Positions 2,663 to 29,672 of a stretch of 64,000 nt of DNA are shown piece by piece. Source of the DNA: Minisyncoccia bacterium. GTDB lineage: Bacteria > Patescibacteriota > Minisyncoccia > Phycocordibacterales > SBAW01. The stretch lies in NCBI GenBank assembly GCA_049997855.1, contig JBEKSG010000004.1, positions 2,607 to 66,606 of the forward strand. Direction: 5' to 3'. Below the pieces are notes generated by a model. That model was given only the letters and a program-made list of their open reading frames with translations, did not search any database and was not told the DNA's origin. The translations under genes and the position numbers were made by a program. The stretch's first letter is position 1; each line of letters opens with the position of its first letter.

Positions 2663-3214
2663 ATGAGACTCTTCATGCCAACCATACTCGTCATTGCCGC
2701 CGTCGGCCTCTTTGTCGTGTACACCAACCCGACCTACCAAGCCACTCATACGCTCCAGGCGCAGGCAAGCGCGTACGACGACGCGCTCACCAAATCGCAA
2801 CAGCTTCGCGCCATCCGCGACCAGCTCTTGAGCAAGCGCAACACCTTTTCGGCCGACGATGTGCAAAAATTGCAAGAGGTGCTCCCCGACAATGTCGATA
2901 ACATCCGCTTTATCATCGACGTTAACAATATTGCCGCGCGGCACAATATCTCGCTCAGCGACGTACAACTCGGCACCATCGGCGGCACGGCACAAACAGA
3001 CCAAAGTGTAGCCGCCGCGTCGAGCGGGGGCGCCGTTGGCTCGGTTGATATTGGATTTACGATAAACGCCTCATACAGCGATATGCTCGCCTTTCTTGGG
3101 GACCTCGAACACAGCGTGCGTCTCATCGACGTCGAGAAGCTTAGTTTTACCGCACCCTCAAGCGGCACCACCACCAACTACACTTTCGTTGTCCGCACGT
3201 ATTGGCTCCATTAA
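2663..3214 (+). CDS. pilO: PilO-like type IV pilus assembly protein (start at ATG 2663; upstream part of listed ORF is read-through of the palindrome)
   Basis: N-terminal TM (MPTILVIAAVGLFVVY) plus coiled-coil/periplasmic domain; operon position. Confidence 0.5.
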   Translation: MRLFMPTILVIAAVGLFVVYTNPTYQATHTLQAQASAYDDALTKSQQLRAIRDQLLSKRNTFSADDVQKLQEVLPDNVDNIRFIIDVNNIAARHNISLSDVQLGTIGGTAQTDQSVAAASSGGAVGSVDIGFTINASYSDMLAFLGDLEHSVRLIDVEKLSFTAPSSGTTTNYTFVVRTYWLH

Positions 3215-3226
3215 CATGCTACCCAT

Positions 3227-3589
3227 ATGAATTTTTTGAAACAAAATAAAATAACCATAGGAGGGATCATCGCAGTTTTGCTCCTGGGATATATTTATAT
3301 TGTTTATTTTTCCGGCTCTTCCACGCCGGCGCTTACGTCGACCGACACCGACACCGCGCTCTCGCAAAACTTGCTCGTGACGCTTCAAAATCTGCAGACG
3401 ATCAAACTCGACAACAGCATCTTTTCGGACCCGGCGTTTATCTCGCTTACCGACTTTGGCGTAACCATCCCGCCGCAGGCGGTAGGCAACCCCGATCCGT
3501 TTTTGCCGCCGAGTGGCGCAGTTTCGGCAGGCAAAGCGGGGAACTCCAACATGCTCCCTGCGATACAATTACCAACTGGCGGGAATTAA
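3227..3589 (+). CDS. Small membrane-anchored pilus-associated protein (PilP-like position)
   Basis: N-terminal TM, Pro-rich C-terminus; between pilO-like and pilB. Confidence 0.3.
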   Translation: MNFLKQNKITIGGIIAVLLLGYIYIVYFSGSSTPALTSTDTDTALSQNLLVTLQNLQTIKLDNSIFSDPAFISLTDFGVTIPPQAVGNPDPFLPPSGAVSAGKAGNSNMLPAIQLPTGGN

Positions 3590-3595
3590 CGTGAT

Positions 3596-5470
3596 ATGAA
3601 TCTGCTTCAATTGCTCAGCGACAGCGGCGTTGTCGATGCAAAGGCTGTGCCGGAGATAGAGGTCGAGCTTCTAAAGCCGGGCGCCGACTTGGAGACGGTG
3701 CTCCAAAAAAACGGCGTCACGCTCGCGCAGATACTCAAAGCAAAAGGCGACTACTACAGCATTCCCACGCGCGAACTAAGTGGCAAAGCGGTTTCGTTTG
3801 ACACCTTGCGCTTCGTGCCCGAGGAGAGCGCGCGGCACTATCGTTTTGCGCCGCTTGGCGTTGTCGATGGCGCGCTCGAGGTGGGCGTCACCGATCCCGA
3901 CAACATGGAAGCGCGCGACGCGCTCACGTTTATATCGGCGAAGGTGGGCATGCCGTACAAAATATTTTTGATTACCGAAACCGATTTTGCAAAACTACTT
4001 TTGCAATATAAAGGCCTCTCCGGTGAAGTGGGCAAAGCGCTCGGCGAGTTTGAGACCGGCGAGGTGGTGGAGAAAAAGGGAGAGAAAGGGAGCCCGCGCC
4101 TGGTGGGCCTGGAAGAAAACGAAGTGACCGAGACCGAGACCTCGGCTATCACCGAGGACGCGCCGGTCACCAAAATTGTGGCGACCATTTTGCGCCATGC
4201 AAGCGAGCAGCGCGCATCCGATATCCACATCGAGCCTCTGGTAGACCAAACGCGCGTGCGTTTTCGCATCGACGGCGTGTTGATTACCAACATCACCTTG
4301 CCCACCAAGGTGCACAACGCCGTGGTGGCGCGCATCAAGGTGCTCTCCAACATGCGCCTCGACGAAAAACGCAAACCGCAAGACGGGCGCTTTAGCGCGC
4401 GTGTGGGCGGCAACAAAGTCGACTTCCGCGTCTCAACCTTCCCAACCTATTACGGCGAGAAGGTGGTGATGCGTATTTTAGGTAGCGCCACAATCGAACT
4501 CAAGCTCAACTCTTTCGGCCTCTCCGCGCGTAACCTCGAGATGATACGCGCCGCGATAAAAAAACCATACGGTCTCGTGCTCATCTCTGGTCCTACCGGA
4601 AGCGGAAAATCAACAACGCTCTACTCGATACTCAACGAGGTTGACAGGGAAAAGCAAAACGTACTTTCGCTCGAAGACCCGGTCGAGTACACCATCCCCG
4701 GCGTTGCGCAAAGCCAGGTGCGGCCCGAAATCGGCTACACCTTTGCCAACGGCTTGCGCACCACGCTCCGCCAAGATCCCAACATCATCATGGTGGGCGA
4801 GATTCGCGACGCCGAAACCGCCAACTTGGCGGTGCAGGCGGCGCTCACCGGCCACCTTGTGCTTTCCACCATCCACACCAACAACGCGATAGGCATCGTG
4901 CCGCGCCTTCTCGACATGGGCGTCGAGCCGTACCTGATACCGCCCGTGCTCATACTTGGCATGGCACAACGCCTCGTGCGCACATTATGCGAGGGCGGCG
5001 GCAAAAAAATGAAGATAGATGAGAGCATGGCGGCCATGTTTAAGGACCAATTTGCCGATTTGCCGCCTGAGTATCAAAAAGAGGTGCCGCCGCTCGACGA
5101 AGTGTATCTTAAGGATCCTTCACCCGATTGTCCGGCAGGCACGCGCGGCCGCATTGCCGTGTTTGAGATGTTCGACATGAACCTCGAGCTCGAGCACGCG
5201 ATACTCGCCGGCAAGCCGGAGGATGATATGTTTGCCGTTGTGCGCAAACACGGCATGCTCACGATGAAAGAGGATGCTATCATTAAAGCGGCAAAGGGCG
5301 TCATACCGTTTGAAGAGGTCAACACGCTCGGCGGTCAGTTTGAGTTGCCCGAAGAAGACGAGGCCGACTACGGCGCGGCAAAGCCGGAAGTGCTCGGCGA
5401 GGATGTTAAAGAAGAGGACACCAAAGAGGAGGTCATCGCCAAAACCAGCGCCAAAGAGATACAAGCATAA
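3596..5470 (+). CDS. pilB: Type IV pilus assembly ATPase PilB (GspE family)
   Basis: N-terminal GspII-like domain, Walker A GPTGSGKSTT, Asp/His boxes, C-terminal zinc-binding region. Confidence 0.9.
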   Translation: MNLLQLLSDSGVVDAKAVPEIEVELLKPGADLETVLQKNGVTLAQILKAKGDYYSIPTRELSGKAVSFDTLRFVPEESARHYRFAPLGVVDGALEVGVTDPDNMEARDALTFISAKVGMPYKIFLITETDFAKLLLQYKGLSGEVGKALGEFETGEVVEKKGEKGSPRLVGLEENEVTETETSAITEDAPVTKIVATILRHASEQRASDIHIEPLVDQTRVRFRIDGVLITNITLPTKVHNAVVARIKVLSNMRLDEKRKPQDGRFSARVGGNKVDFRVSTFPTYYGEKVVMRILGSATIELKLNSFGLSARNLEMIRAAIKKPYGLVLISGPTGSGKSTTLYSILNEVDREKQNVLSLEDPVEYTIPGVAQSQVRPEIGYTFANGLRTTLRQDPNIIMVGEIRDAETANLAVQAALTGHLVLSTIHTNNAIGIVPRLLDMGVEPYLIPPVLILGMAQRLVRTLCEGGGKKMKIDESMAAMFKDQFADLPPEYQKEVPPLDEVYLKDPSPDCPAGTRGRIAVFEMFDMNLELEHAILAGKPEDDMFAVVRKHGMLTMKEDAIIKAAKGVIPFEEVNTLGGQFELPEEDEADYGAAKPEVLGEDVKEEDTKEEVIAKTSAKEIQA

Positions 5471-5476: not shown

Positions 5477-6541
5477 ATGCCAAATTACAAACAAAAATTG
5501 CAACAACTTATCGAGGCGCTCATTGCCCAGGGCGGCTCCGATTTGCACCTTTCCTCCGGCATACAGCCGATGATGCGCGTCTCTGGCGTCCTCACCCCAA
5601 TGTTAAGTGAGCCGCTTTTAACGAGCGCCGACATGCTCGGGCTTATCACCGAGCTTCTGCCCCCGGAGCGCAAAGACCTTTTCCTTAAAACGCAAGAGGC
5701 CGACTTTTCATTTGCCTACGGCGAAAAGGTGCGCTTTCGCGGCAACGCCTACTTTGAGCGCGGCTCGATAGGCGTGGCGTTGCGCCTCATACCGCGTACA
5801 ATCCGCACTGTCGCCGAGCTTAATTTGCCCGCCGTGCTCGAAACGTTTGCCGAACGGCAACAGGGATTTTTTTTGGTGGTGGGACCGGTGGGGCAGGGCA
5901 AAACCACGACGCTTGCCGCGCTAATAGAAAAGATCAACCAAGATCGCAGTGAGCACATCATCACTATCGAAGACCCAATCGAGTATTTGTTTGAAAATAA
6001 AAAGTCACTGGTGGAGCAGCGCGAGGTGCACGTTGATACCGCCGATTTCCCGCAGGCACTGCAGTCGGTATTCCGCCAGGATGTCGACGTGCTCATGATA
6101 GGCGAGATGCGTACGCCGGAAACCATCGCGACCGCCGTGACCGCCTCCGAAACGGGGCACCTCGTCTTTTCGACCCTCCACACCAACAACGCCGCGCAAA
6201 CAGTCGACCGCATTATCGACTCCTTCCCGCCTAACCAGCAAGAACAAATCCGCATTCAGCTTGCAGGATCTTTGGCGGGCATATTTAGTCAGCGCTTATT
6301 GCCGCGCATTGCGGGCGGCCTTATCCCGGCCTACGAGCTCCTGCTCAACAACAGCGCCATTGCAAACCTCATCCGCGAAAAACGCACGTACGAGATACAA
6401 ACCATCATCGAAACCGGCGTTGCTGACGGCATGATAGACATGAACCGCTGCCTTGCCGACCTGGTGCGTCAGGGTGAGATAACCATCGAAAGCGCGTACG
6501 CCAGAAGCTGGAATCCCAAGAGCCTCGAGCGCTTGATGTAA
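5477..6541 (+). CDS. pilT: Twitching motility / pilus retraction ATPase PilT
   Basis: Walker A GPVGQGKTTT, AHLVFSTLHT motif, ~350 aa PilT architecture. Confidence 0.9.
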   Translation: MPNYKQKLQQLIEALIAQGGSDLHLSSGIQPMMRVSGVLTPMLSEPLLTSADMLGLITELLPPERKDLFLKTQEADFSFAYGEKVRFRGNAYFERGSIGVALRLIPRTIRTVAELNLPAVLETFAERQQGFFLVVGPVGQGKTTTLAALIEKINQDRSEHIITIEDPIEYLFENKKSLVEQREVHVDTADFPQALQSVFRQDVDVLMIGEMRTPETIATAVTASETGHLVFSTLHTNNAAQTVDRIIDSFPPNQQEQIRIQLAGSLAGIFSQRLLPRIAGGLIPAYELLLNNSAIANLIREKRTYEIQTIIETGVADGMIDMNRCLADLVRQGEITIESAYARSWNPKSLERLM

Positions 6542-6557: not shown

Positions 6558-7775
6558 ATGGAATTTACGTACGAAGGACTCGATAGCCAGGGCAAGCCGC
6601 AAGGCGGCATCGTTAATGCCGCATCGCAAGACGCGGCCATACAGAGTATCCAACGCAATGGCATTACCATTACTGCGCTTAGAGCAAGCGGACAAAAAGG
6701 CGGCCTCGTAAGCTCACTCCAGCACATCACACTGTTTGGCCGTGTGCGAAGCCGCGACCTTGTGCTTCTCTCGCGCCAAATCGCGACACTCTTTGAGGCA
6801 CAAGTGTCTGCCTTGCGCGTCTTTCGTCTGCTTGCCGAGCAGGCCGAGAAGCCGGTCCTTCGCCAAGCCTTAACCGAAATCAGCGACGATCTCCAGGGAG
6901 GCACCAGCATATCCAAAGCGCTCGACAAGCACCCAAAAATCTTTTCCGACTTTTATGTCAACATGGTGCGCGCAGGCGAGGAGTCGGGCAAGCTCGACCA
7001 AACATTCCTTTTTTTGGCCGACTACATCGACCGCAATTACGCCCTCACCTCTAAGGCGCGCAACGCGCTGGTATATCCGGGCTTTATTTTCGTCACTTTT
7101 ATCGGCGTGATGATTCTCATGCTCACGGTCATTATTCCCAACATAGGCTCTATTTTGACCGACTCCGGCGGCACCCTGCCGCTTGAAACGCAAATCGTGC
7201 TCGGGCTCTCCTCCTTTTTGGTTGATTACGGCATATTTTTGCTCATAGCACTCATTATTGGAGGCTATTTTGTCATGCAATACTTTAAAACCCCCAAAGG
7301 CAAACTCACGCTCGGGCAGCTCAAACTCTCGGTTCCGTACATCGGCGACCTGTACAAAAAGCTGTATCTCACGCGCATTGCCGACAACATGCATATTATG
7401 CTCTCCTCGGGCATATCGGCGGTGCGCTCGCTTGAGATAACCGCCGCGGTGGTGGACAACGAGATTTACGAAAAAATCCTTACCGAAGCGGTCGAGGGGG
7501 TCAAGGCAGGCAGTTCGATGTCGCAGACTTTTGCCAAATATCCCAAGGAAATCCCGGCTATTTTGGTGCAAATGCTCCAAATTGGCGAGGAAACGGGCGA
7601 GATGGGCAGTGTATTGGAGCGCCTCGCCAAGTTTTACGAACGGGAGGTCAATAGCGCGGTAGATACGCTAGTGTCCCTTATCGAGCCGGCGCTTATCATC
7701 GCGCTCGCGGTTGGCGTGGGCTTTTTGCTTGCTTCCGTGCTCCTGCCTATCTACAACACCACCGCAAATATGTAA
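6558..7775 (+). CDS. pilC: Type IV pilus inner-membrane platform protein PilC (GspF family)
   Basis: Two GspF repeats with TM segments; 405 aa. Confidence 0.85.
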   Translation: MEFTYEGLDSQGKPQGGIVNAASQDAAIQSIQRNGITITALRASGQKGGLVSSLQHITLFGRVRSRDLVLLSRQIATLFEAQVSALRVFRLLAEQAEKPVLRQALTEISDDLQGGTSISKALDKHPKIFSDFYVNMVRAGEESGKLDQTFLFLADYIDRNYALTSKARNALVYPGFIFVTFIGVMILMLTVIIPNIGSILTDSGGTLPLETQIVLGLSSFLVDYGIFLLIALIIGGYFVMQYFKTPKGKLTLGQLKLSVPYIGDLYKKLYLTRIADNMHIMLSSGISAVRSLEITAAVVDNEIYEKILTEAVEGVKAGSSMSQTFAKYPKEIPAILVQMLQIGEETGEMGSVLERLAKFYEREVNSAVDTLVSLIEPALIIALAVGVGFLLASVLLPIYNTTANM

Positions 7776-7908: not shown

Positions 7909-8418
7909 ATGTATAAAAAAGGTTTTACCCTCATCGAGCTCTTGGTTGTTATCGCCATCATCGGCATTCTCGCGTCCATTGTGCTCGTCTCTCTTAACAG
8001 CGCCCGCTCCAAAGGTCGCGATGCACAGCGCGTCGCCAACCTCCAGGAGATGGCAAAAGGTATTGCGTTGAACGATAGTGGCGCAAATGTTACCTTTGCT
8101 TCCCCTTGTAACGCCAAAAACGCAAACGTTACAGGGTGTGCCGGTCTTACCGGAGGAGGTACTCTTACCGGGATCACGTTTTCACAGTATACGGATCCTT
8201 CGGGCACCGCTGTGTGTACAAACGCTTCTACAGCGGTATGCCAGTACTCTATTGCGACTGATGCAGGTGCGGCGGGTGCAGGGACCGAGAACTACGAGAT
8301 TTGCTCTTGGCTTGAAAATGGCAACGCTTCGTTTGCAAACCCCAACGGTTCCACAAATACTGGACTGGTCAGTGTTACCGACGCCACCTCGGGTGGCGTA
8401 ATCGCAGGTTGCAAATAG
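7909..8418 (+). CDS. pilA: Type IV pilin (prepilin leader MYKKG|FTLIELL)
   Basis: Class III signal peptide and N-methylation/cleavage motif GFTLIE, hydrophobic alpha1-N. Confidence 0.8.
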
Positions 8419-8494: not shown

Positions 8495-9061
8495 ATGAAA
8501 TTTATTAAGGCAGGGAAGAAAGGCTTTACGCTCATCGAGCTCTTAACCGTTATTGCTATTATCGGCATACTCGCCTCAATTATTATGGTGTCGCTCAAAT
8601 CTGCCCAATCAAAAGGGCGCGACGCAAAGCGCGTTGCCGACATCCGCACCATCCAGCTTGCGCTCGAGGAGTACTACAATGACAACGGTGCCTACCCTAC
8701 CTCAATTTCTAATAGCGCTCTTGCAAACTACCTCCCCTCGGTACCTACCGACCCATCCACTAATGTTTCTTATTTTTACACCGTATACGACCTTACTTCG
8801 GCAGGAAGTTCAAACTGCACAACTCATCCGATAGTCAAATATCATCTAGCGGCAGCAATGGAAAGCACTGCTTCTACTAATTCAGCTCTGAATCAAGATG
8901 CTGATTGGAACGGCGATCCAGGCGCCGCCACATACACCAAATGCAGTACAGGCGGTAGCGGTCCAAGCGGTGGCGCGGTCTTTGACGGTCTCACGTCCAA
9001 CTGTGTGGGCACCACTGAAGTTTCTGCTTCAGCCGACGGCTGTTACGACGAAACCAACTGA
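8495..9061 (+). CDS. Second type IV pilin (leader MKFIKAGKKG|FTLIELL); listed ORF start 8435 is an N-terminal over-extension
   Basis: GFTLIE motif; ATG at 8495 downstream of terminator. Confidence 0.75.
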   Translation: MKFIKAGKKGFTLIELLTVIAIIGILASIIMVSLKSAQSKGRDAKRVADIRTIQLALEEYYNDNGAYPTSISNSALANYLPSVPTDPSTNVSYFYTVYDLTSAGSSNCTTHPIVKYHLAAAMESTASTNSALNQDADWNGDPGAATYTKCSTGGSGPSGGAVFDGLTSNCVGTTEVSASADGCYDETN

Positions 9062-9067: not shown

Positions 9068-9934
9068 TTGACCATTTTTACCATATTTTTAGTGGGTGCG
9101 ACTTTGCTGGGTGTCATCGTCGGCAGTTTTTTAAACGCGCTCTCGTTCCGCTTTAACACGGGTGTGCCTTTTTTTAGCACGCGTGGCATGGGCGGGCGCT
9201 CGCGCTGTATGCAATGCGGGCATGCGCTCGGTGGCCTCGATTTGGTGCCCGTTTTTTCGTATATTTTTTTAGGAGGCAAGTGCCGCTACTGCGGCTCGCG
9301 CATCTCGGCGCAGTATCCGCTTGTGGAGATTGTGGCGGGAATGCTTGGCGCGGGAGTGTTTGTGAGAGTGTGGGATGCGATGCCTCCTCAAGGAGGCATC
9401 GCATCCGCTCTTGCATTTTTGTTTTGGTTTGTAATATGGATGACGCTTTTGTTTGTCGTCATCTATGACCTCAAACACATGATTATCCCGTGGAGCTGTT
9501 CGCTTGTGCTTGTTGCACTTGCGGTTGTTGGTATTATGTTCAACCTCGTAGGTAAGGGCACACTTATGCCGCTCACAGCGGCTCCAACATCAAACCTATG
9601 GGCGTTGCTCGCGGGGCCGCTTTTGGCACTGCCGTTATTTCTACTCTCTCTGGTATCGTGGGGCCGATGGATGGGGTGGGCAGACAGCGCACTTGAGCTA
9701 TCAATAGGAGCGTTGCTCGGTTTAAGCGCCGGTGCGACCGCGCTTAGCTTCGCCTTTTGGAGCGGCGCACTCATAGGCGTCATACTCATTGCACTCTCGC
9801 GTGTTTTTTCTCGGCTGCATTTTTTTAGGTATACAATAAAGAGCGAGATGCCGTTTGCTCCGTTTTTGGTGTTGGGAGCCGCTCTCGCTTATTTTTGTCA
9901 TGTCGACTTCTTTTCGTCGTTCACGCTCTTTTGA
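9068..9934 (+). CDS. pilD: Prepilin peptidase PilD (A24 family); TTG start 9068 or GTG near 9095
   Basis: CxxC..CxxC zinc motif (CMQCGHALGG..CRYCGSRISAQYPLVE), multiple TMs, catalytic Asp region. Confidence 0.85.
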   Translation: MTIFTIFLVGATLLGVIVGSFLNALSFRFNTGVPFFSTRGMGGRSRCMQCGHALGGLDLVPVFSYIFLGGKCRYCGSRISAQYPLVEIVAGMLGAGVFVRVWDAMPPQGGIASALAFLFWFVIWMTLLFVVIYDLKHMIIPWSCSLVLVALAVVGIMFNLVGKGTLMPLTAAPTSNLWALLAGPLLALPLFLLSLVSWGRWMGWADSALELSIGALLGLSAGATALSFAFWSGALIGVILIALSRVFSRLHFFRYTIKSEMPFAPFLVLGAALAYFCHVDFFSSFTLF

Positions 9935-10589
9935 TAAGCGGCCTGCCTGCGCAGGCAGGGGCTTTACCTTGCTCGAGCTTATGGTAACGATGGCTATTAT
10001 GGTCATCGTTACCAGCATCATGCTGTTTAACCAGGCCAAATTCGACAGTTCCACTATTTTGCGCTCGCTCGCGTACAGCGTGGCGCTCTCGGTCCGCCAA
10101 GCGCAGGTGTACGGCACCTCGGTCCTCGGCACCTCGACGCCCCAGGTTGCATGCAGCGGTTTTTATTCGGCGGGGGAGTGTTATGTGTCCGCCTACGGCG
10201 TGTACTTTAACAGCGCAAGTCCCGGGCAATACATCCTCTTTGCCGACCTCAACAACGACGGTCGGTACGAGACGGGAGAGGCTATAAAAGTATTTTCACT
10301 CAACACCGACTATGTAGTATCGGATTTTTGTGCGGCACAATCGGGTAGTCCAGTGCCTAGCAACCCTTTAGCGTGGTGTAAAAGTACTGGCACGATAACC
10401 CAGCTAAGTATTGTATTTAAAAGACCAAACCCAGATGCTTGTTTTTCAACCGATTTGAATTCCAGTGCTTGTGCGCCTGGAAGCACGCCGTTTTACTCAA
10501 GCGCTATGATTTATTTAACCAATCAAGGCGATCCTTCAAGTGTGCGGAGCGTGATGGTTACCTCAACAGGACTTATATCGGCACAATGA
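9900..10589 (+). CDS. Pseudopilin/minor pilin with 21-aa leader MSTSFRRSRSFDKRPACAGRG|FTLLELM; overlaps pilD 3' end
   Basis: GFTLLE cleavage motif; ATG 9900 in frame; palindromic repeat encodes PACAGR at -7..-2. Confidence 0.6.
   Translation: MSTSFRRSRSFDKRPACAGRGFTLLELMVTMAIMVIVTSIMLFNQAKFDSSTILRSLAYSVALSVRQAQVYGTSVLGTSTPQVACSGFYSAGECYVSAYGVYFNSASPGQYILFADLNNDGRYETGEAIKVFSLNTDYVVSDFCAAQSGSPVPSNPLAWCKSTGTITQLSIVFKRPNPDACFSTDLNSSACAPGSTPFYSSAMIYLTNQGDPSSVRSVMVTSTGLISAQ
9941..9959. repeat. Palindromic repeat copy 3 (GCCTGCCTGCGCAGGCAGG), in pseudopilin leader, encodes PACAGR
   Basis: Read from sequence. Confidence 0.9.
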
Positions 10590-11215
10590 AAATCTATTCG
10601 CACATATTTAAAACGCGCCTGCCTGCCGGCAGGCAGGGATTTACCCTTATCGAAATGCTCGTCTCGGTCGCACTGTTTTCGGTCGTGATGGTCATGGCGC
10701 TCGGCGCGTTGCTCTCGCTCTCCACAGCCGACAGGAAGGCGCAGGCGCTCAAGTCGTCGGTAGATAACCTTAACTTTGCGCTCGACTCTATGTCGCGCAC
10801 GATACGCACCGGCTACAACTATCATTGCGGTTCTTCTTCCGGCGGAGATTGTAAAGCCGGCAACAACACGTTTTACTTTACCGCCAACAATGGCGTGGTA
10901 ACCGCCTATCGGCTTGAGAGCCTCACGGTCGACTCCAACGCCGCGGCTATATGCGGGCAAACCATTGCGACACCCGGCTGTCTTGCCATTTCGGTCGGGG
11001 GAGGCGCATGGGCGTCCATCACGAGCCCCGACGTTATCATCAATGACTTGAGCGCCTCAAACAGCTACTCGTTCCATTTGTGGGGAACAACCACCGGGGA
11101 CAATATCCAGCCGATTGTGGTGATTACGCTCAGCGGCTACGCGCAGGTGAGTACCACACAACAGTCGGCCTTCCATTTGCAAACCACCGTGACGCAACGC
11201 ATTTATGATCAATAG
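10586..11215 (+). CDS. Pseudopilin/minor pilin with 18-aa leader MKIYSHIFKTRLPAGRQG|FTLIEM; ATGA overlap with previous gene
   Basis: GFTLIE motif; palindrome variant encodes LPAGRQ at -7..-2. Confidence 0.65.
   Translation: MKIYSHIFKTRLPAGRQGFTLIEMLVSVALFSVVMVMALGALLSLSTADRKAQALKSSVDNLNFALDSMSRTIRTGYNYHCGSSSGGDCKAGNNTFYFTANNGVVTAYRLESLTVDSNAAAICGQTIATPGCLAISVGGGAWASITSPDVIINDLSASNSYSFHLWGTTTGDNIQPIVVITLSGYAQVSTTQQSAFHLQTTVTQRIYDQ
10618..10637. repeat. Palindromic repeat copy 4, CCGG-centred variant (CCTGCCTGCCGGCAGGCAGG), in pseudopilin leader
   Basis: Perfect 20-bp palindrome read from sequence. Confidence 0.9.
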
Positions 11216-12339: not shown

Positions 12340-14370
<2,031 letters not shown>

Positions 14371-14397: not shown

Positions 14398-14718
14398 ATG
14401 ATTTCCAAAGAGGAGGTGGAACAATTGGCCGCTTTGGCACGGCTTGAGGTGACACCCAAAGAGATAGAGAGCTTGCAAAAAGACATCTCAAACATTCTCG
14501 GCTATGTCGGGCAAGTAGCGGCTGTCTCTGTCGACGGCAAAGAGCACGAGATACCTCTCGTGCGCAATGTGCTCCGCAGTGATGTGCCGCGCCTGCCTGC
14601 GCAGGCAGGCGAAGCGGGAGACACGATGGCTGGCAAAGAGGCACAGGTGATAGCGGCGTTCCCTAAACGCGAGGGCACTTTTAACGTCGTGCGCAAGATA
14701 ATCCAAAAAGATGAGTAG
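14398..14718 (+). CDS. gatC: Glutamyl/aspartyl-tRNA amidotransferase subunit C with in-frame palindrome insertion (LPAQAG)
   Basis: GatC-like N-terminus (EEVEQLAALARLEV); 8-nt overlap with gatA. Confidence 0.75.
   Translation: MISKEEVEQLAALARLEVTPKEIESLQKDISNILGYVGQVAAVSVDGKEHEIPLVRNVLRSDVPRLPAQAGEAGDTMAGKEAQVIAAFPKREGTFNVVRKIIQKDE
14590..14611. repeat. Palindromic repeat copy 5 (CGCCTGCCTGCGCAGGCAGGCG, 22-bp perfect palindrome) inside gatC
   Basis: Read from sequence. Confidence 0.9.
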
Positions 14719-16138
14719 CTTAAACGAACTTTCGATAGCAGAAGCGTCCAAAAAATTGCAAGCGGAAGAGATTACCGCGGTAGATTTGGCACGCGCCTGT
14801 TTGGATGAAATAAAAAAAAGAGACACAAGCTTGCATGCGTTTTTGGAAGTGTATGACGATGTCCTCGAGCAAGCACAGGCGGCTGATGAGAGGCGAGTCC
14901 GTTCGACAAGCTCAAGGCAAGAAGTAAGCCCGCTTCTTGGCATCCCGCTTGCGATAAAAGACAATATTTTAATCGAGGGGCGTAAAGTCTCGGCTGCTTC
15001 AAAAATGTTGGAAGGCTACGTTGCCACATTTGATGCGACCATCATTACAAAACTAAAAGAAGCGGGCGCCGTGTTTCTTGGCCGCACCAACATGGACGAG
15101 TTTGCGCACGGCGGCTCGACCGAAAACTCCGCGTTTGGCCCGACCAAAAATCCGCACGACGAGTCGCGCGTGCCCGGCGGTTCATCCGGCGGCTCCGCGA
15201 CTGCGGTTGCCGCACACATGGCGCTCTGTGCACTTGGCACCGACACCGGCGGCTCCATCCGCGAGCCGGCAAGCTTTTGCGGGTTGGTGGGGCTCAAACC
15301 AACCTACGGCGCGGTCTCGCGCTCGGGGCTCATCGCGATGGGCAGCTCGCTCGACCAAGCAGGGCCGCTCACGCACACTGTCGAAGACGCGCAACTTATT
15401 TTTGATACCATCCGCGGCAAGGATGAGCTCGACAGCACCACCATCACGCCCGATTTTTATCCAAAAAAATCTTACGGCAAACGTATTGGCGTACCAAGGC
15501 ATCTCCTTAAAGAGGGAATAGACAAAGATGTTCTGCAAGCGTTTAACAAAACACTCGAGACGTTTAAAGCGAAAGGGTATGAAATTGTCGATGTGGAATT
15601 GCCGCTCGCGGGCCTCGCGCTTGCGGTCTATTACGTCATCATGCCGGCGGAGGTCTCCGCAAATCTCGCGCGCTTTGACGGCGTGCGCTACGGGTTGTCG
15701 CGCAAAGGCAAAACACTGTTTGACGACTACGCGATTTCGCGGGGAGAGGGTTTTGGCCCCGAGGCGCGCCGCCGGATTATGCTCGGCACCTACGTGCTTT
15801 CGGCCGGCTACTATGACGCCTATTTTGGCAAAGCAACCGCCGCGCGCGCACAGTTGCGTGCCGAGGTTGAGCGCGTGCTCAAAGAGGTTGACAGTATTGT
15901 TACGCCAACCGCCACATCGCCCGCCACAAAACTTGGCGAGAAGACCGATGACCCGCTTGCGATGTACTTGATGGACATCTTTACGGTTACCGCAAACTTG
16001 ACCGGCAATCCAGCTCTCTCGGTGCCCATGGGCACCGTCCTGCGCGAAGACAAGCATCTCCCGGTGGGTATCCAATGTATGGCTGCACATGGCGACGAAG
16101 CCACGCTGTTTAGTATGGGGAAAGTAATTGAAGCTTAA
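14711..16138 (+). CDS. gatA: Glutamyl/aspartyl-tRNA amidotransferase subunit A (amidase)
   Basis: Amidase signature GGSSGGSA, catalytic Ser-cisSer-Lys context; 475 aa. Confidence 0.9.
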   Translation: MSSLNELSIAEASKKLQAEEITAVDLARACLDEIKKRDTSLHAFLEVYDDVLEQAQAADERRVRSTSSRQEVSPLLGIPLAIKDNILIEGRKVSAASKMLEGYVATFDATIITKLKEAGAVFLGRTNMDEFAHGGSTENSAFGPTKNPHDESRVPGGSSGGSATAVAAHMALCALGTDTGGSIREPASFCGLVGLKPTYGAVSRSGLIAMGSSLDQAGPLTHTVEDAQLIFDTIRGKDELDSTTITPDFYPKKSYGKRIGVPRHLLKEGIDKDVLQAFNKTLETFKAKGYEIVDVELPLAGLALAVYYVIMPAEVSANLARFDGVRYGLSRKGKTLFDDYAISRGEGFGPEARRRIMLGTYVLSAGYYDAYFGKATAARAQLRAEVERVLKEVDSIVTPTATSPATKLGEKTDDPLAMYLMDIFTVTANLTGNPALSVPMGTVLREDKHLPVGIQCMAAHGDEATLFSMGKVIEA

Positions 16139-18606: not shown

Positions 18607-19938
18607 CTACATTAGAGTAATTTTCTTATCATTGATTACGAGCTTGCCGCGCAGGTGCTCCAGTAGCTCGCGCTTTTCCTCCATGCTTCCTTCCTCAAGC
18701 AGGTACTTTGCATATTTCTTTATATCCATCGCCACCCCTGTGTCTTTCTCTTTTGAACCAAGCACTGTCTTGCGGAGCTTGTTGTAGCGGGCAATCTCTT
18801 TCTCAATAAGGTGGCGGGCGCCCAACTCGTCAATCTCGACTTGGTCGATGATTCCGCACAGCTGCTCTATGACACTGTCCTCACGGATGTAAGGATTCTT
18901 GCAATTGCGGTCTTTGCCGCCAGTGCAACTGTAGTAGGTGTACCAGCGGGAAGTGCCATCTTTGTTGACCTTCTGCTTGTCCAATCCGGTCACGCCGGAG
19001 CCGCACTTGCCGCATACCATGAGGCGCACAAAGGTAAACTCGCGGTCGCGCTTTCTTGGCTTGCTCTCCTCGATAATCTTTGCACGGACCGCTTGGAATA
19101 GTTCCTGTGAGATGAGAGGCTGATGCTTCCCAACATACCAGTTGCCGCTCTTACGCGGGTACTCATACACGCCGCAGTAAAAGGGATTCTTGAGCATCTC
19201 GTACAGCGTGCTTATGTTAAGCGTCTTGTCGTTGCGTGTCTTGAAGTTCATCTCATCCTTTAGCCAAAAATATACCCGCTTGCCGCTCCAGCGTTCCTTT
19301 GCCACTTTCTCGAATATCATCCTAACTACCGGCGCCCGTAGGGGATCGAGCAGTACTTCGCACTTGTGGTCTGAGCGTTTGTCGTTGAGATATCCAGTCG
19401 GCGCATACCCCGGCAAAAGGCCCATTTCTGCACGCGTTCGCAGCCCGCGCTTCACGTTTACGCTCTTGTTGTCATTCTCCAGCTTTGCCTGAGAGCACAG
19501 TATCATCAGCATGAACTTCTCGTTCGGATTGTTGGTAAACTTCTGCGAGTACGCGCGTATCTCCAAGAGCTTGCCTTGGTCGAATAGGTCCACCACCGCA
19601 CCAAGGTCTCCGGCATTGCGGCTCAGCCTGTCCGGTGCCCACGTCAGGATGCCGTTGAATTTTCCCGTTCGTATATCAGCGAGCAACTGCTGGTACACGG
19701 GTCGTTGCCCGGCCGCTTTTGCAGAATGCTTCTCCTGTCGCACTTCAACAACTTCGAGCCCATCCCGCTCTGCCACCTGCGTCATCTCCTTGATTTGCGA
19801 CCCTATGGAGAGAGCCTGATTCTCATCGTCCTCGGTGCTCTTGCGAGCGTAAAGGCAGTAGCGCACCTTTACTGCCTCCTTAATTTCCGGCCTCGCCCCT
19901 AGAGCTCCTGTTGTACCTTCAAAAACGCTTGTGTTCAT
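18607..19938 (-). CDS. Large serine recombinase (integrase)
   Basis: N-terminal resolvase catalytic domain (YARKSTEDDENQ..), recombinase domain, C-terminal zinc ribbon CGKCG..C..C, coiled-coil; 443 aa. Confidence 0.85.
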   Translation of the reverse strand: MNTSVFEGTTGALGARPEIKEAVKVRYCLYARKSTEDDENQALSIGSQIKEMTQVAERDGLEVVEVRQEKHSAKAAGQRPVYQQLLADIRTGKFNGILTWAPDRLSRNAGDLGAVVDLFDQGKLLEIRAYSQKFTNNPNEKFMLMILCSQAKLENDNKSVNVKRGLRTRAEMGLLPGYAPTGYLNDKRSDHKCEVLLDPLRAPVVRMIFEKVAKERWSGKRVYFWLKDEMNFKTRNDKTLNISTLYEMLKNPFYCGVYEYPRKSGNWYVGKHQPLISQELFQAVRAKIIEESKPRKRDREFTFVRLMVCGKCGSGVTGLDKQKVNKDGTSRWYTYYSCTGGKDRNCKNPYIREDSVIEQLCGIIDQVEIDELGARHLIEKEIARYNKLRKTVLGSKEKDTGVAMDIKKYAKYLLEEGSMEEKRELLEHLRGKLVINDKKITLM

Positions 19939-19947
19939 ATGCCTTGT

Positions 19948-19975
19948 AGTTACTTGCTAATCTGCAAGTACAAGG
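19948..19975. promoter_or_regulatory. Inverted repeat TTACTTGC-n6-GCAAGTAC in divergent promoter region between recombinase and helicase genes
   Basis: Dyad read from sequence, 10 nt upstream of recombinase start codon. Confidence 0.3.
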
Positions 19976-20034
19976 AATGACGCAACCCCTGCTGTGAGTC
20001 TAGACCAGCTCCGGCACCCCTAAGTTGGTAAGAA

Positions 20035-23000
20035 ATGCTTCTAAAAGAGGCTCAAAGTGCTATTATTTGCCTAATAATACGAAATTTCATGAATTCCGAT
20101 CTTACATTCATAACCAACGAGGATGGTCAGAACCTTAAGGAGAGGTTCGAAGTGTTAATTAAAGACACTAAGTTCTTTGACTGTCTGGTCGGGTACTTTT
20201 ATGCCAGCGGCTTCCACGCCGTATATAAGTCTCTAGAAAAGACGGAGAAAATCAGGATTCTTATTGGCATCAGCACTGATCCGCATACCTACGATTTGAT
20301 GCAGCAAGCGCAACCGGTAGCGCAGACTGCCTTGCAGTTCTCGAGTGCAGAGACGAAAGAAAAGCTTGGTGCAGTTGTCGAGCAGGAGATGGAATCTTCC
20401 GAGGACAACGCAATAACCGAGAATGGCGTTTCAAAATTCATTGAGTGGATACAGAGCGGTAAATTGGAGATTCGTGCATATCCATCGGAGAAAATCCATG
20501 CAAAGGTTTACATCATGACGTTTGGCGAGGGCGATCGCGACAAGGGTCGCGTTATCACCGGTTCAAGCAACTTTACGCAAGCGGGTTTCGTGGACAATCT
20601 AGAGTTCAATGTCGAACTCAAAAACAGTGCCGATTATGATTTTGCTTTGAGCAAATTCAACGAACTATGGAAAGATTCAGTGGATGTCAGTCAAAAATAT
20701 GTTGACACCATACAAACGAAAACGTGGCTCAGCGATAGCATTACCCCGTATGAACTGTATCTGAAATTCCTCTATGAATATTTCAAGGATGATCTAGGTA
20801 CCCACGATGAAGTGTTCCTTAAGTATCTTCCGATTGAATTCAAGAAACTTGAGTACCAAGAACAAGCCGTTCTTAATGCGAAGAAGATTCTTGATGAATA
20901 TGGCGGTGTATTTATTTCCGACGTCGTCGGTCTAGGTAAGACGTATATTTCGGCGATGCTCGGCGGCCAACTCGTGAATGAAGGCAGGATTCTCGTCATC
21001 GCTCCGCCGGTCCTGCTGGATAAGACCAATCCGGGGTCATGGCCGAACGTGTTTAGGGATTTCAACGTGCCGGCCACGTTCCGGTCTATTGGCGAACTCG
21101 ACAAGATCATCAAGGACGGTGTCGAACAGTATTCGCATCTGTTTGTTGATGAGGCACACCGCTTCCGTACCGAGAATAATGCGACGTATGAAAAGTTGGC
21201 CGAGATTTGTCGTGGGAAGAAGGTCGTCCTTGTAACCGCGACTCCGTACAACAACTCCCCAAGGGATATTTTGAGTCAGATCAAGCTTTTCCAGAAGGCT
21301 CGAAAGAGTACAGTCCCTAATTTGCCGGATCTCGAGCAATTCTTCGCCGGTCTCGAACGCAAGCTTAAAAATCTCGACCGCCAGAAAGATTATGACGAAT
21401 ACATCGCGGCCGTCAAAGAAAACGCGAAGGAAATCCGAGAGAAAGTACTCAAGTATTTGATGGTGCGTCGTACTCGCACGGAGATCACCAAATATTTTGC
21501 GGAAGATCTGGCCGCTCAGAAGCTGAAGTTCCCGGACATAGAAAAACCGGAAGCGACTTTCTATGAATTGAACGACGATGAGGATGTGATATTTACCAAG
21601 ACCATTGAGCTGCTGGCTAAGAACTTCAAGTACGCGCGGTACACCCCGATTCTTTACTACAAGGGTGAGGTCAGTCAGCCGGAGGAATTGGCCCAAAAGA
21701 ACATGGGCAAGTTTATGAAAATACTGCTCATCAAGCGTCTCGAAAGCAGCTTTCACGCATTCCAAAACTCACTCGGTCGCTTTATACATTCTTACGAGTC
21801 ATTTATATCGGAGATGGATAACGGCAACGTATATGTAAGCAAAAAGTACACGAATAAAATCTTTGAATTTCTTGCGGATGACAATGACGACGCTGTCGAA
21901 GCACTGATTAGCCAGGGTAAGGCTGATAGGTTACCCAGCAAGGATTTCCGAGCAGAGTTTAGAAAGGACTTGCAAAGCGATCTCGATATCTTGAAAGAGA
22001 TTCATCAGATGTGGATGAGCATCAAGCGCGACCCGAAGCTTTTGGCATTTATAGAAAAACTTTCCACCAACCCGATCCTTAAAAAGAGTAAGCTCATCAT
22101 ATTTACTGAATCAAAGGAGACGGCTGAATACCTCGCCAAGAATATCGATGCCAAGTTTCCGAATGAGACGCTCTGCTTTACTGGTGCCTCCAGCATGCTG
22201 GTCCGGGAACAGGTTATTGAGAATTTTGATGCCAAGGCCAGATTCCCGAAAGACGATTACCGAATTCTCGTCTGCACTGAAATATTGGCGGAAGGTGTGA
22301 ACTTACATCGTTCCAATGTCGTTATTAATTACGATATTCCTTGGAATCCGACCCGCATGATGCAACGGGTCGGTCGCGTCAACCGAGTCGATACCAAATT
22401 CGATAAGGTCTATACATTCAATTTCTTTCCTACTAAACAAGCCAACGACCAAATCAAGCTTCGTGAGGCGGCCGAGGCGAAAATCAGCGCATTCTTGTCC
22501 TTGCTTGGCGGCGATGCACATTTGCTCACCGAAAACGAGCCAATTGGATCCCACGAGCTGTTCAACCGCCTCACCTCAAAAGAAATTATTACCGGCGAGA
22601 ATGAGGACGAGGAGAGCGAACTCAAATATCTTCGTGTCATCAAGGATATTCGAGATAAAGACCCGGATACTTTTGAAAAAGTTAAGCGTTTACCCAAGAA
22701 GGCGCGAACAGCGAGAACGAACAAAGAGCATGTCGGGCAACTGATCTCATATTTTCGTCGTGGAAAGATACAAAAGTTCTTCGCAGCCACAGGCACTCGT
22801 TCTCAAGAATTGGATTTCATTTCCGCAGCTAAAATGCTTGAGTCTGCAAAAGACACGAAGCGGCAGAAAGTTGATAAGGATTTCTACTCCCTGCTTGAGG
22901 AAAACAAGAAGGCATTTATCTTTGCGACAACAGAAGAAATGCCGGAAGTAAAAATGCGCGGCGGGCGCGACAGCGCGACGCAAATCTTGAGGATTCTGAA

Positions 23001-23283
23001 GGCGACCATGAACGACCACCGACAATTTACCGAAGAACAGGAGCTTTATCTCAAAAAGGTCGTCACCCAGCTCGAGGAAGGCGGTTTGCCTAAACAAACC
23101 ACGAAGGTAACACTGCAGGCTCTTAATGATGAAATCAAAAAAAACATTAATCCGCTAAAGATTCTCTCGGTCCTGCAGAGTCACATCTCAGTGCGGCTTC
23201 TTGGAGGTCATTTTGCCGAAACTACCACCGACCACTTCGGTAAGCGAGAGGTTATTCTGTCAGAGTATTTGACGAACTTATGA
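20035..23283 (+). CDS. PLD-family nuclease / SNF2-type SF2 helicase fusion protein (probable start ATG 20089)
   Basis: N-terminal HxK..GSxN phospholipase-D motif (HAKVYIM..GSSNFT); Walker A GLGKT, DEAH box (FVDEAH), helicase C-terminal motif VI (QRVGRVNR). Confidence 0.8.
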   Translation: MLLKEAQSAIICLIIRNFMNSDLTFITNEDGQNLKERFEVLIKDTKFFDCLVGYFYASGFHAVYKSLEKTEKIRILIGISTDPHTYDLMQQAQPVAQTALQFSSAETKEKLGAVVEQEMESSEDNAITENGVSKFIEWIQSGKLEIRAYPSEKIHAKVYIMTFGEGDRDKGRVITGSSNFTQAGFVDNLEFNVELKNSADYDFALSKFNELWKDSVDVSQKYVDTIQTKTWLSDSITPYELYLKFLYEYFKDDLGTHDEVFLKYLPIEFKKLEYQEQAVLNAKKILDEYGGVFISDVVGLGKTYISAMLGGQLVNEGRILVIAPPVLLDKTNPGSWPNVFRDFNVPATFRSIGELDKIIKDGVEQYSHLFVDEAHRFRTENNATYEKLAEICRGKKVVLVTATPYNNSPRDILSQIKLFQKARKSTVPNLPDLEQFFAGLERKLKNLDRQKDYDEYIAAVKENAKEIREKVLKYLMVRRTRTEITKYFAEDLAAQKLKFPDIEKPEATFYELNDDEDVIFTKTIELLAKNFKYARYTPILYYKGEVSQPEELAQKNMGKFMKILLIKRLESSFHAFQNSLGRFIHSYESFISEMDNGNVYVSKKYTNKIFEFLADDNDDAVEALISQGKADRLPSKDFRAEFRKDLQSDLDILKEIHQMWMSIKRDPKLLAFIEKLSTNPILKKSKLIIFTESKETAEYLAKNIDAKFPNETLCFTGASSMLVREQVIENFDAKARFPKDDYRILVCTEILAEGVNLHRSNVVINYDIPWNPTRMMQRVGRVNRVDTKFDKVYTFNFFPTKQANDQIKLREAAEAKISAFLSLLGGDAHLLTENEPIGSHELFNRLTSKEIITGENEDEESELKYLRVIKDIRDKDPDTFEKVKRLPKKARTARTNKEHVGQLISYFRRGKIQKFFAATGTRSQELDFISAAKMLESAKDTKRQKVDKDFYSLLEENKKAFIFATTEEMPEVKMRGGRDSATQILRILKATMNDHRQFTEEQELYLKKVVTQLEEGGLPKQTTKVTLQALNDEIKKNINPLKILSVLQSHISVRLLGGHFAETTTDHFGKREVILSEYLTNL

Positions 23284-23284
23284 T

Positions 23285-26965: not shown

Positions 26966-27312
26966 AAACCGTATTTATAGGGCATCCGGTCGGCGGCGAT
27001 ATAAAGGGCAATATCGAGAAAGTTTTAAAGATATGCTCGGAGGTGCACACGAAGGATATTATTCCGGTTGCCCCCTATCTTATATCGCTTCAATATCTTA
27101 ACGACGAATTGATCGAAGACCGGGAACTTGGCATGGAGGCCAACCATGAATGTTTTCGCCGCCGATATGTTGATGAGCTTTGGTTGTTTGGCGATACAAT
27201 ATCCCCGGGAATGGAGAAAGAAATTTTACTCGCGAAGGAAATGGGCATCCCAATCGTCCCAAAGACCGAGGGTGCAAAGCGAGATTTGAGCAAGCTCACT
27301 GGTGTAGAATAA
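26962..27312 (+). CDS. DUF4406-like (nucleoside 2-deoxyribosyltransferase-like fold) protein
   Basis: MKTVFIGHPVGGD.. N-terminus typical of DUF4406; ATGA overlap with MTase gene. Confidence 0.4.
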   Translation: MKTVFIGHPVGGDIKGNIEKVLKICSEVHTKDIIPVAPYLISLQYLNDELIEDRELGMEANHECFRRRYVDELWLFGDTISPGMEKEILLAKEMGIPIVPKTEGAKRDLSKLTGVE

Positions 27313-27316
27313 ATTT

Positions 27317-27448
27317 ATGGACGAGGAACTTTTTGAACTGGCAAAAGAGAACGACCTAACGCTTGATGAGGCGCAGGAGGTTCAGGATCTTGCTGATGAG
27401 ACAGGGTTAGATCTAGAAGAAGCCTTAGAGCTCTGGCAGGAGCAGTAG
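27317..27448 (+). CDS. 43-aa highly acidic small protein, copy 1 (MDEELFELAKENDLTLDEAQEVQDLADETGLDLEEALELWQEQ)
   Basis: Not in ORF track (<60 aa); a second copy at 61931 differs mainly at synonymous sites, implying a selected protein. Confidence 0.5.
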   Translation: MDEELFELAKENDLTLDEAQEVQDLADETGLDLEEALELWQEQ

Positions 27449-27495
27449 TCTGCGGTAATAAAGACAATTTCCTCGAAAAGTGTTATAATATACCT

Positions 27496-29640: not shown

Positions 29641-29672
29641 CTCCCGAGCCGCGTCAAGTTAAAAAAAACTCT

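Follow-up and report, generated by a model that had tools for sequence, protein, structure and literature searches.

Two consecutive pseudopilin genes in a 64,000 nt stretch of DNA from a Minisyncoccia bacterium (contig JBEKSG010000004.1; hereafter the window, within which all positions are given) carry leader peptides of 21 and 18 aa, and in both leaders the residues preceding the invariant Gly(-1) are encoded by a short perfect palindrome. The region concerned, 9900-10640, falls within a type IV pilus or competence-type cluster, as judged from translations of the open reading frames (ORFs) and Pfam scans. How did such palindromes come to stand in front of two prepilin cleavage sites? Their insertion may have created the leaders, the prepilin peptidase PilD tolerating the result, or they may have been selected at this position, for instance as a structure regulating minor-pilin translation where the first gene overlaps pilD. 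We propose, with a probability of roughly 0.7, that the encoded hexapeptides are by-products of dispersed, recently proliferating short perfect palindromes, and that these are tolerated selfish DNA rather than a regulator. The genes needed for the argument are the following, a slash marking the cleavage site here and below:

7909-8418, plus strand: pilin 1, of the major-pilin type, a comparison gene with the short leader MYKKG/F
8495-9061, plus strand: pilin 2, a comparison gene with the short leader MKFIKAGKKG/F
9068-9934, plus strand: pilD, prepilin peptidase (Pfam A24_N_bact and Peptidase_A24), its last 35 nt dual-coded with the start of pseudopilin 1
9900-9934, plus strand: overlap of pilD and pseudopilin 1, read as HVDFFSSFTLF and a stop codon in one frame and as MSTSFRRSRSF in the other
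9900-10589, plus strand: pseudopilin 1 (a minor pilin), 21-aa leader, Pfam N_methyl
10586-11215, plus strand: pseudopilin 2, 18-aa leader, Pfam N_methyl

The N-terminus of pseudopilin 1 reads MSTSFRRSRSFDKRPACAGRG/FTLLE, with a leader of 21 aa counting Gly(-1), and that of pseudopilin 2 reads MKIYSHIFKTRLPAGRQG/FTLIE, with a leader of 18 aa. The N_methyl matches of the two proteins have E values of 4e-6 and 2e-8, and the features of a class III signal peptide are present: Gly(-1), a hydrophobic residue at +1, Glu(+5), an N-terminal hydrophobic helix and an adjacent pilD gene. The 18-bp perfect palindrome CCTGCCTGCGCAGGCAGG at 9942-9959 encodes exactly PACAGR, which occupies positions -7 to -2 in the leader of pseudopilin 1. 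In pseudopilin 2, LPAGRQ directly before Gly(-1) is encoded by the perfect 20-bp palindrome CCTGCCTGCCGGCAGGCAGG at 10618-10637, which extends by one base at each end into the neighbouring codons, taking in the third position of the Arg(-8) codon and the initial G of the Gly(-1) codon. The sequence and its ORFs thus bore out the initial annotation as to the two long leaders and the palindrome-encoded hexapeptides in front of Gly(-1). The leaders of the two comparison pilins are short, as stated there, although counted like the long leaders they measure 5 and 10 aa instead of 4-9 aa, and pilin 2 starts at 8495, not at 8496. Between the pilD stop (TGA, 9932-9934) and Gly(-1) there is no in-frame ATG, GTG or TTG, so the sole usable start of pseudopilin 1 is, as had been noticed, the ATG at 9900 inside pilD; no downstream start would give this protein a short leader, Gly(-1) directly following the palindrome. 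The ATG of pseudopilin 2 overlaps the pseudopilin 1 stop codon (ATGA), an overlapping start conserved in the related loci L122 and L124, and its only alternative downstream start is a CTG within the palindrome.

Both palindromes belong to a family of the form (CCTG)2C - 0 to 2 nt - G(CAGG)2, 18-20 bp in length. The pattern CCTGCCTGC-N0-6-GCAGGCAGG matched six times in the window compared with 0.00 times across 100 shuffles, and a seventh copy with one mismatch was found at 48238-48257. All seven copies lie inside ORFs and in frame, in genes whose identities are supported by Pfam:

2583-2600: 18-bp copy in the C-terminal tail of a PilN-like protein, GLPAQAG, in a region too variable in relatives to define an empty site
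2637-2654: 18-bp copy at the penultimate residues of the same PilN-like protein, GLPAQAGQ before the stop codon
9942-9959: 18-bp copy in the pseudopilin 1 leader, PACAGR
10618-10637: 20-bp copy in the pseudopilin 2 leader, LPAGRQ
14592-14609: 18-bp copy in a linker of gatC, RLPAQAGEAG
48238-48257: 20-bp copy with one mismatch in a surface loop of CTP synthase (pyrG), NLPAGRQV
55828-55845: 18-bp copy in an MliC-domain protein, GLPAQAG

The palindrome is free of stop codons in every frame. In the reading frames used in the window the 18-mer gives LPAQAG four times and PACAGR once, and the 20-mer gives LPAGRQ twice, a reading also present in L171 and L147; the frame that would give Cys-Leu-Arg-Arg-Gln is unused both in the window and in relatives. 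Alignments with solved structures place the pyrG insert in a variable loop and the gatC insert in a linker. With Rfam 15 at the gathering score, the window gave six tRNAs and a LOOT RNA, and no known RNA family was found at 9900-10640 or at any of the palindromes. The searched literature held no relevant paper on the palindrome strings or on the peptides LPAGRQ, LPAQAG and PACAGR, and keyword searches returned nothing specific on in-frame palindromic insertions in Patescibacteria.

Syntenic relatives of about 84% nucleotide identity (L122/L128, L123, L124/L125 and L293) were used to compare filled and empty sites. In pseudopilin 1, L122/L128 read MSIFSHRSRSFGNRG/F and L124/L125 read MSIFSHRSHSFGKQG/F, and the window has these sequences plus exactly 18 nt. 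The empty allele of L122 is TCT TTT GGT AAC AGA/GGT TTT ACC, and L122, L123, L124, L125 and L128 all show a clean 18-nt gap at 9942-9959. In pseudopilin 2 the leader is MKRG/F in L122 and MSSHISKNG/F in L124, the window having 21 nt more than the latter. Exactly 18 nt are missing from L122 and L125 at the PilN copy 2637-2654 and from L293 at the MliC-like copy, and exactly 21 nt are missing from L293 at the pyrG copy, where L292 has a decayed copy at the same site. The seven-residue insert in CTP synthase is absent from 107 of 112 close homologues, which have a 23-residue segment against 30 residues in the window. At gatC the same site is filled in L122/L128, and L124 lacks exactly 18 nt. An exact absence of 18 or 21 nt in relatives was therefore seen at six of the seven window sites. 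No target-site duplication was found at the clean empty/filled pairs, where the ambiguity of the junction is only 0-2 nt (G or GG). To judge from these alignments, the window copies are recent clean insertions relative to the syntenic relatives. Seven copies are present in the 64 kb of the window, and a single one in the orthologous sequence, about 32 kb, of the 84%-identity relative. Since the gatC copy is the only one common to L122/L128, the comparison indicates a recent, lineage-specific burst of about six insertion events.

Library artefacts, for example a chimeric fold-back read, can generate perfect palindromes, but an error of assembly or sequencing is an extremely improbable source of these copies. 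An assembly of the same organism made independently, L121 (Logan SRR12951267; 99.9% identity along 11.5 kb, gap-free), has the same three palindromes in the locus, identical to those of the window. The reading frame is always kept, the gatC copy is also present in a different species-level relative from another metagenome, and the palindrome is found in the genomes of cultured isolates (Winogradskyella, Flagellimonas, Robertkochia).

The effect of the insertions on leader length was considered for each gene. A database search gave 460 homologues of pseudopilin 1; the nearest are labelled Candidatus Paceibacterota or Patescibacteria by their sources, with Kaiserbacteria and Adlerbacteria nearby. 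Across 120 database homologues and about 80 orthologous metagenomic loci, the leaders of pseudopilin 1 orthologues measure 13-37 aa, nearly all start with M[SLW]I[FS], and their alignment shows an invariant start-codon column. In every locus checked (L122, L124 and L206-L208 among them) the ATG is located 35-41 nt within the 3' end of pilD, and the PilD C-terminus HVDFFSSxTLFW, with its stop codon, is dual-coded with the leader MSIFSxRSRS even in homologues of only about 40% identity. The length of this leader is set by the conserved 35-41-nt overlap with pilD. On this comparison, a 21-aa leader is ordinary for the gene family and the long leader is an ancestral trait, with 15 aa in the nearest relatives and six more added by the insertion to give 21. 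The leaders of pseudopilin 2 orthologues are 3-10 aa long (median 6.5-9), beside which the 18 aa of the window, seven of them from the insert, are unusual. The proposal that insertion of the repeat created the leaders consequently stands in so far as both were lengthened by it; it fails for pseudopilin 1, whose long leader was neither created by the insertion nor unusual, and does not depend on the palindrome, relatives having long leaders without it, an outcome that the initial annotation had itself named as refuting the idea. Gene callers cut about one third of the pseudopilin 1 homologues back to an internal Met, including the JGI call P0001 for the window gene.

We propose that the palindromes act like selfish repeats of the type of repetitive extragenic palindromic (REP) sequences or Rickettsia palindromic elements (RPEs), whole units being copied to new sites without target duplication. 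In a gene-dense genome the surviving insertions would be those that keep the reading frame (18 nt, or 20 + 1 nt), and they would be further confined to segments in which six or seven added residues are harmless. The prepilin leader would be one such segment, as PilD would cut after Gly(-1) and the leader would be discarded; the remaining sites, in a C-terminal tail, linkers and a surface loop, would be likewise tolerant. The usual translation of the palindrome is the bland LPAQAG or LPAGRQ. Prepilin peptidases critically require only Gly(-1) for cleavage, and leaders of 15-30 aa are natural to type IVb prepilins. PilD presumably tolerates the lengthened leaders, and the insertions are probably neutral; copying between sites is the mechanism that we infer for their spread. 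One gammaproteobacterial chromosome holds its own 19-bp variant several times, which we count in favour of descent of one copy from another.

The other possibility raised by the locus is that the hairpin was selected as an RNA or DNA structure tuning minor-pilin translation at the pilD overlap, through ribosome stalling or re-initiation at the upstream ATG or through mRNA stabilisation. The palindrome at 9942-9959 is predicted to form an RNA hairpin of 7-8 bp with a tetraloop, at about -13 to -16 kcal/mol, which begins 42 nt after the pseudopilin 1 ATG and 8 nt after the pilD stop. Its stability and closeness to that stop would suit such a role, as would the reliance of pseudopilin 1 on an overlapped start codon and the recurrence of family palindromes before Gly(-1) across several lineages and paralogous pilins. 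We nonetheless consider it improbable. Overlap and start codon are the same in the nearest relatives, where the hairpin is missing; most of the approximately 80 orthologous loci lack it too, and the identical unit is found within the coding sequence of the unrelated genes gatC, pyrG, PilN and MliC-like, to which the role is inapplicable. At 42 nt downstream of the ATG, the palindrome is beyond the footprint of an initiating ribosome, and the geometry differs in pseudopilin 2, where the ATGA overlap lies 32 nt upstream. Terminator-like sites were not above shuffles, and the sole one at a palindrome is antisense. For these reasons, and because there is no Shine-Dalgarno motif to occlude, the suggestion in the initial annotation that the hairpin is selected as a regulator at this overlap is rejected as the principal explanation.

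Two particular devices were ruled out: occlusion of a Shine-Dalgarno motif by the hairpin, such motifs being essentially absent in the organism, and a transcription terminator, no sense-strand T-run following either palindrome. Upstream of the start codons of the window Shine-Dalgarno motifs are nearly absent, and in many genes a TATAAT-like box ends 6-10 nt before the ATG (e.g. 14398, 16263, 27496, 38257, 40457 and 49664). This pattern suggests that leaderless or near-leaderless mRNAs may be widespread.

The position next to Gly(-1) is occupied repeatedly. In a data set centred on pilin loci and comprising 311 distinct prepilin-type N-termini, a member of the palindrome family abuts the Gly(-1) codon in nine, namely the two window genes, two genes of L147, and one each in L171/L172, L206, L207, L140 and L141. 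Gene 1 of L171/L172, whose protein is 43% identical, has a leader ending in SLPAGRQG/F. Gene 2 and another pilin of L147 read MKNYTRLPAGRQG/F and MKIKKSLPAGRQG/F, and the same C>T mismatch in both points to copy-from-copy descent. The L206 version has 16 bp, one CCTG unit being missing, that of L207 has 10 bp, and L140 and L141 contain variants. Related palindromes stand next to Gly(-1) in four or more further lineages, which points to a permissive hotspot within the discarded leader. The same data set has about six full-length copies elsewhere than in leaders, and the leader segment makes up about 1% of its bases; in this collection, centred as it is on pilin loci, the leader segment is strongly over-represented among the copies.

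Leaders of other lineages have different palindromes or repeat peptides at the same place (GPASTRRLRRGG, SLVRSRG, GLAPRARSAFSG). GC-rich repeat-encoded peptides of this kind, to which RPFDSAQGRG/RPFGLAQGKG is to be added, are recurrent in the variable portion of the leaders of relatives (L131, L132, L159, L147, L182; L137, L166, L185, L193; L161, L167; P0034, P0054), and the pilD of L123 contains the peptide DGPSTRPRAS, encoded by GGCCCTTCGACAAGGCCCAGGGCAAGCC. These leader and PilD peptides of the relatives probably represent additional short repeat families.

The empty sites of the palindrome tend to lie at the centre of small dyads: GGTAAAC-AG^GG-GTTTACC in L124 and GGTAA-CAGA^GGTT-TTACC in L122, GCG^CGC at gatC and CC^GG at PilN (the caret standing at the junction). 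Leaders of the form K-P-x-G/F tend to fold into hairpins, as the codon sequences for Lys-Pro (AAACC) and for Gly-Phe (GGTTT) are the reverse complements of each other. Nesting in small palindromes has been described for REPs (PMC3733652). Directly before the GGN codon of Gly(-1) there is probably a mutational hotspot as well: AAACC...GGTTT (Lys/Pro...Gly/Phe codons) would form a local hairpin in whose loop the unit would land, and the terminal GG of the element would give 1-2 nt of junction homology. The placement at Gly(-1) is probably non-random even though its function is probably nil, and a mild target preference, via the hairpin loop or the GG junction, may operate beside permissiveness.

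The same junctions bear on the idea that the palindromes arise de novo at CAGG or GG sites, by CAGG slippage and fold-back (template-switch) synthesis, independently in many genomes. The arms are tetranucleotide repeats, the versions of L206 and L207 are shortened by whole CCTG units, empty sites often have CAGG or GG at the junction (L124, AAACAGGGG), and an occurrence across phyla is otherwise hard to explain. Filled and empty alleles, however, differ by a whole 18 or 21 nt and not by one arm, and the empty sites of gatC, pyrG and MliC have no CAGG nearby. The mismatch common to the two L147 copies indicates descent from a copy, and an arm-swapped control, GCAGGCAGG..CCTGCCTGC, which the same process would be expected to produce, is about 40 times rarer in viral contigs. 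Independent origin is, in our opinion, unlikely.

The abundance of the palindrome among related loci is relevant to another function, that of a DNA signal for the pilus or for competence, either as a DNA-uptake sequence or as the crossover site of a recombinase that shuffles pilin genes. In favour are the nature of the locus, a type IV pilus or competence-type cluster, and the copies in several pilin genes; the perfect dyad with its central CG resembles a dimer-binding or serine-recombinase-type site, and a large serine recombinase is encoded at 18607-19938. Known uptake sequences, in contrast, occur about once per kb, are common to a recombining group and are not perfect palindromes; the density here is about one per 9 kb, about six times lower in the 84%-identity relatives, and the orthologous sites are empty. 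In 715 kb of related loci there were only five distinct exact-match sites (L122/L128, L145, L171/L172), or seven if the one-mismatch pair of L147 is included. The loci examined showed no rearranged pilin alleles, and the sequence is found in phyla and phages without such a pilus context, where it is mostly intergenic. A signal of either sort is very improbable.

The distribution of the palindrome was then considered beyond these loci. A scan of one genome per species gave at least 120 loci, in Patescibacteria, Omnitrophota, Bacteroidota including cultured isolates (Flavobacteriia), Planctomycetota, Proteobacteria, Acidobacteriota and others. Among the matches listed, the centre is CG at 79 sites, empty at 14, a single nucleotide at 31 and another dinucleotide at two, a distribution from which exact palindromy appears to be favoured. 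The complete scan of viral contigs gave 76 stretches, against two for the arm-swapped control and five for a mirror-image control. Again among the matches listed, about 76% of the sites outside the clade of the window are intergenic, the boundary of the unit is sharp (no extension at 88 of 124 sites), and tRNA genes, or duplicated fragments of them, are broken up by the palindrome within the D arm, T arm or variable loop at about 10 of 205 sites, compared with about 0.3% of control positions. Some genomes have their own centre variant in several copies (OZ251218.1), and the palindromes of L001-L120 and L209-L284 are often flanked by heptamer-type tandem repeats (L209, L076, L051) or by A/T runs.

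In three loci a small GIY-YIG ORF (about 78-88 aa) lies between a palindrome-bearing tRNA fragment and the intact tRNA (L056, 2103-2480; L275, about 490-900; L115, about 3170-3620). The fragment is duplicated and has the palindrome in the D or T arm, an architecture that looks like a tRNA-targeting GIY-YIG element whose redundant tRNA fragment bears the palindrome. When the ORFs within 2 kb of about 214 palindromes were clustered all against all, only phage structural genes and the small GIY-YIG family, the latter at 4-5 loci, emerged among the matches listed. Other tRNA sites were noted as well. In L001, L007, L025 and L045 (palindrome at 2446, 4462, 4041 and 3628) 5' fragments of tRNA-Leu, tRNA-Val and other tRNAs are interrupted in the D arm, 17-64 nt upstream of an intact tRNA gene and with no ORF between. 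In the viral contig L256 (2239-2330) the 20-bp palindrome forms the long variable arm, between the anticodon and T arms, of a tRNA-Met predicted by ARAGORN, which possibly is still functional with its insertion.

It is possible, although we regard it as doubtful, that (CCTG)2C - 0 to 2 nt - G(CAGG)2 is an ultra-short (18-20 bp) genetic element in its own right, copied into hairpin loops or centres by a widely distributed trans-acting enzyme. This reading agrees with a perfect palindrome that is conserved from Patescibacteria to Bacteroidota, Omnitrophota, Planctomycetota, Proteobacteria and phages, and that would be copied, with no target duplication, into sites such as the Gly(-1) codons of prepilins and the D arm, T arm or variable arm of tRNA genes and tRNA gene fragments, some of them beside small GIY-YIG genes.

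Several of these observations weigh against our proposal of a tolerated selfish repeat that proliferated within one lineage. The same sequence is present across many phyla and in phage contigs, where it is 15-40 times commoner than composition-matched control palindromes. Such a spread is hard to reconcile with a purely lineage-specific repeat and may point to a conserved protein or process by which the sequence is recognised or produced. To our knowledge, no mobile element so far characterised is as short as this unit of 18-20 bp, which also leaves no target duplication. In about 45 ORFs of the window scanned with Pfam there was no transposase, no RAYT, no HUH protein and no other gene that could plausibly mobilise the unit; only the large serine recombinase, which lies in a low-GC restriction-modification island, was detected. 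The concentration at Gly(-1) exceeds what tolerance alone obviously predicts, in a comparison set that is centred on pilin loci, and among the matches listed prepilin leader sites account for none of the approximately 214 palindrome sites of the unbiased genome and viral scans.

The closest known kind of element is an intragenic palindromic repeat like the REPs or the RPEs, although the defining features of each are lacking. As in REPs (or REPINs), the units are short, GC-rich and palindromic (REPs have 20-40 bp), they occur in many copies per genome with a lineage-specific abundance, and the copy number differs between close relatives. REPs are extragenic, usually downstream of ORFs, and imperfect, with a loop or bulge and a GTAG or CGTC end, whereas the seven window copies are all intragenic and each unit is a perfect palindrome of 18-20 bp with no GTAG or CGTC in its flanks. 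There is no RAYT, the IS200-like Y1 transposase cognate to REPs, among the Pfam-scanned ORFs of the window, and an identical sequence across phyla is unlike the REPs, which are normally species-specific. Intragenic REPs have been catalogued by Di Nocera et al. 2013: they lie within genes, encode extra residues and insert into pre-existing small palindromes (PMC3733652). The RPEs, of 100-150 bp, are found in frame in protein-coding genes and have proliferated in a lineage-specific manner (PMC1779305). Similarly, the palindromes described here are in frame in genes including housekeeping enzymes, in surface or variable segments where they would be tolerated, and are absent from orthologues. They differ from RPEs, which encode 30-50 residues and form families defined by hidden Markov models in Rickettsiales, in their 18-21 bp, their 6-7 residues and their phylum.

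Other systems are more remote. Miniature inverted-repeat transposable elements are likewise non-autonomous, have essentially inverted termini and show presence/absence polymorphism between relatives, but they possess terminal inverted repeats and target-site duplications and measure tens to hundreds of bp, whereas here there are only two inverted arms of 18-20 bp in all and no duplication. We know of no insertion sequence element that matches the palindrome. The highly iterated palindrome HIP1 of cyanobacteria (GCGATCGC) is also short, perfect, abundant in coding sequence and biased as to codon frame; at 8 bp, it is thought to spread by substitution or conversion and leaves gene length unchanged, while each copy here is a length-changing insertion. 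Type IVb prepilins resemble the two pseudopilins in having leaders of 15-30 aa that end in Gly(-1) and are cleaved by an A24 prepilin peptidase, so that a long leader as such is compatible with processing; the mature N-terminus G/FTLIE here is instead of the type IVa or pseudopilin kind. DNA uptake sequences (the DUS of Neisseria and the USS of Pasteurellaceae) are short over-represented motifs, often intragenic with a frame bias and found in organisms with competence pili, but they are non-palindromic, about ten times denser and conserved among close relatives.

The window contains further long perfect or near-perfect palindromes of other sequence. In pilD, 9373-9406 is a unique 34-bp near-perfect palindrome, GGATGCGATGCCTCCTCAAGGAGGCATCGCATCC, encoding WDAMPPQGGIAS. 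With the pilD of L123 and L124 for comparison, it stands out as 30 nt (10 aa) inserted in frame between transmembrane segments, and its predicted RNA hairpin has -34.7 kcal/mol with z = -6.7. Other unique coding palindromes lie at 14119-14141 (ligA), 16020-16037 (gatA), 57903-57927 (PIF1-like helicase) and 63292-63322, that of gatA being conserved in L122/L128. The long palindromes of pilD, ligA, PIF1 and elsewhere were not repeated in any of the loci compared besides chance matches of half-sites. Palindromic in-frame insertions beyond the CCTG family suggest a general trait of the lineage.

The remainder of the pilus cluster and the other features observed are as follows:

1-627: PilM-like
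1945-2661: PilN-like
2663-3214: PilO-like
3596-5470: pilB
5477-6541: pilT
6558-7775: pilC
Starts at 9900, 10586, about 11238 and about 11828: the four pseudopilin genes of the cluster
Downstream of the pseudopilins: ligA, gatC and gatA
18607-19938, minus strand: large serine recombinase, bounding the low-GC island
20035-23283: SNF2/PLD-nuclease protein
23285-26965: Eco57I/MmeI-type methyltransferase fusion

The low-GC island, 18607-31000, has a GC content of 0.40-0.45 compared with about 0.52, also encodes a DUF2130 protein and a UDG-family protein, and is probably an integrated defence island. The LOOT RNA match of Rfam lies at 31806-31922 (68.9 bits, the gathering score being 46.4), immediately upstream of an ORF of 300 aa that has no annotation. 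At 58354-61793 an NYN-domain protein is followed by a 770-aa fusion of a Schlafen-group-3-type helicase with a C-terminal S24 (LexA-like) peptidase, an unusual combination that is possibly related to defence.

For the biology of the pilus the answer to the question posed by this locus is mostly deflationary. The long leader of pseudopilin 1 would be inherited through the conserved overlap of its gene with pilD, and the palindrome-encoded peptides would be passengers in a cleaved segment, neither a new type of signal peptide nor a regulatory device. A practical warning concerns gene callers, by which a third of such pseudopilin genes are truncated. For the organism, whose gene-dense, Parcubacteria-type genome belongs to the candidate phyla radiation and is of the ~1-Mb class, the finding would mean that a selfish palindromic repeat can proliferate in frame within disposable or flexible segments, with about six new insertions since the divergence of the 84%-identity relative. 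Prepilin leaders would be a recurrent landing pad, which would account for part of their hypervariability. Should the palindrome prove to be an ultra-short element in its own right, it would be the smallest mobile DNA unit described and a general source of 6-7-residue insertions in gene-dense genomes; and if its conservation across phyla and its association with tRNA fragments reflect a dedicated mechanism, the interest would be wider.

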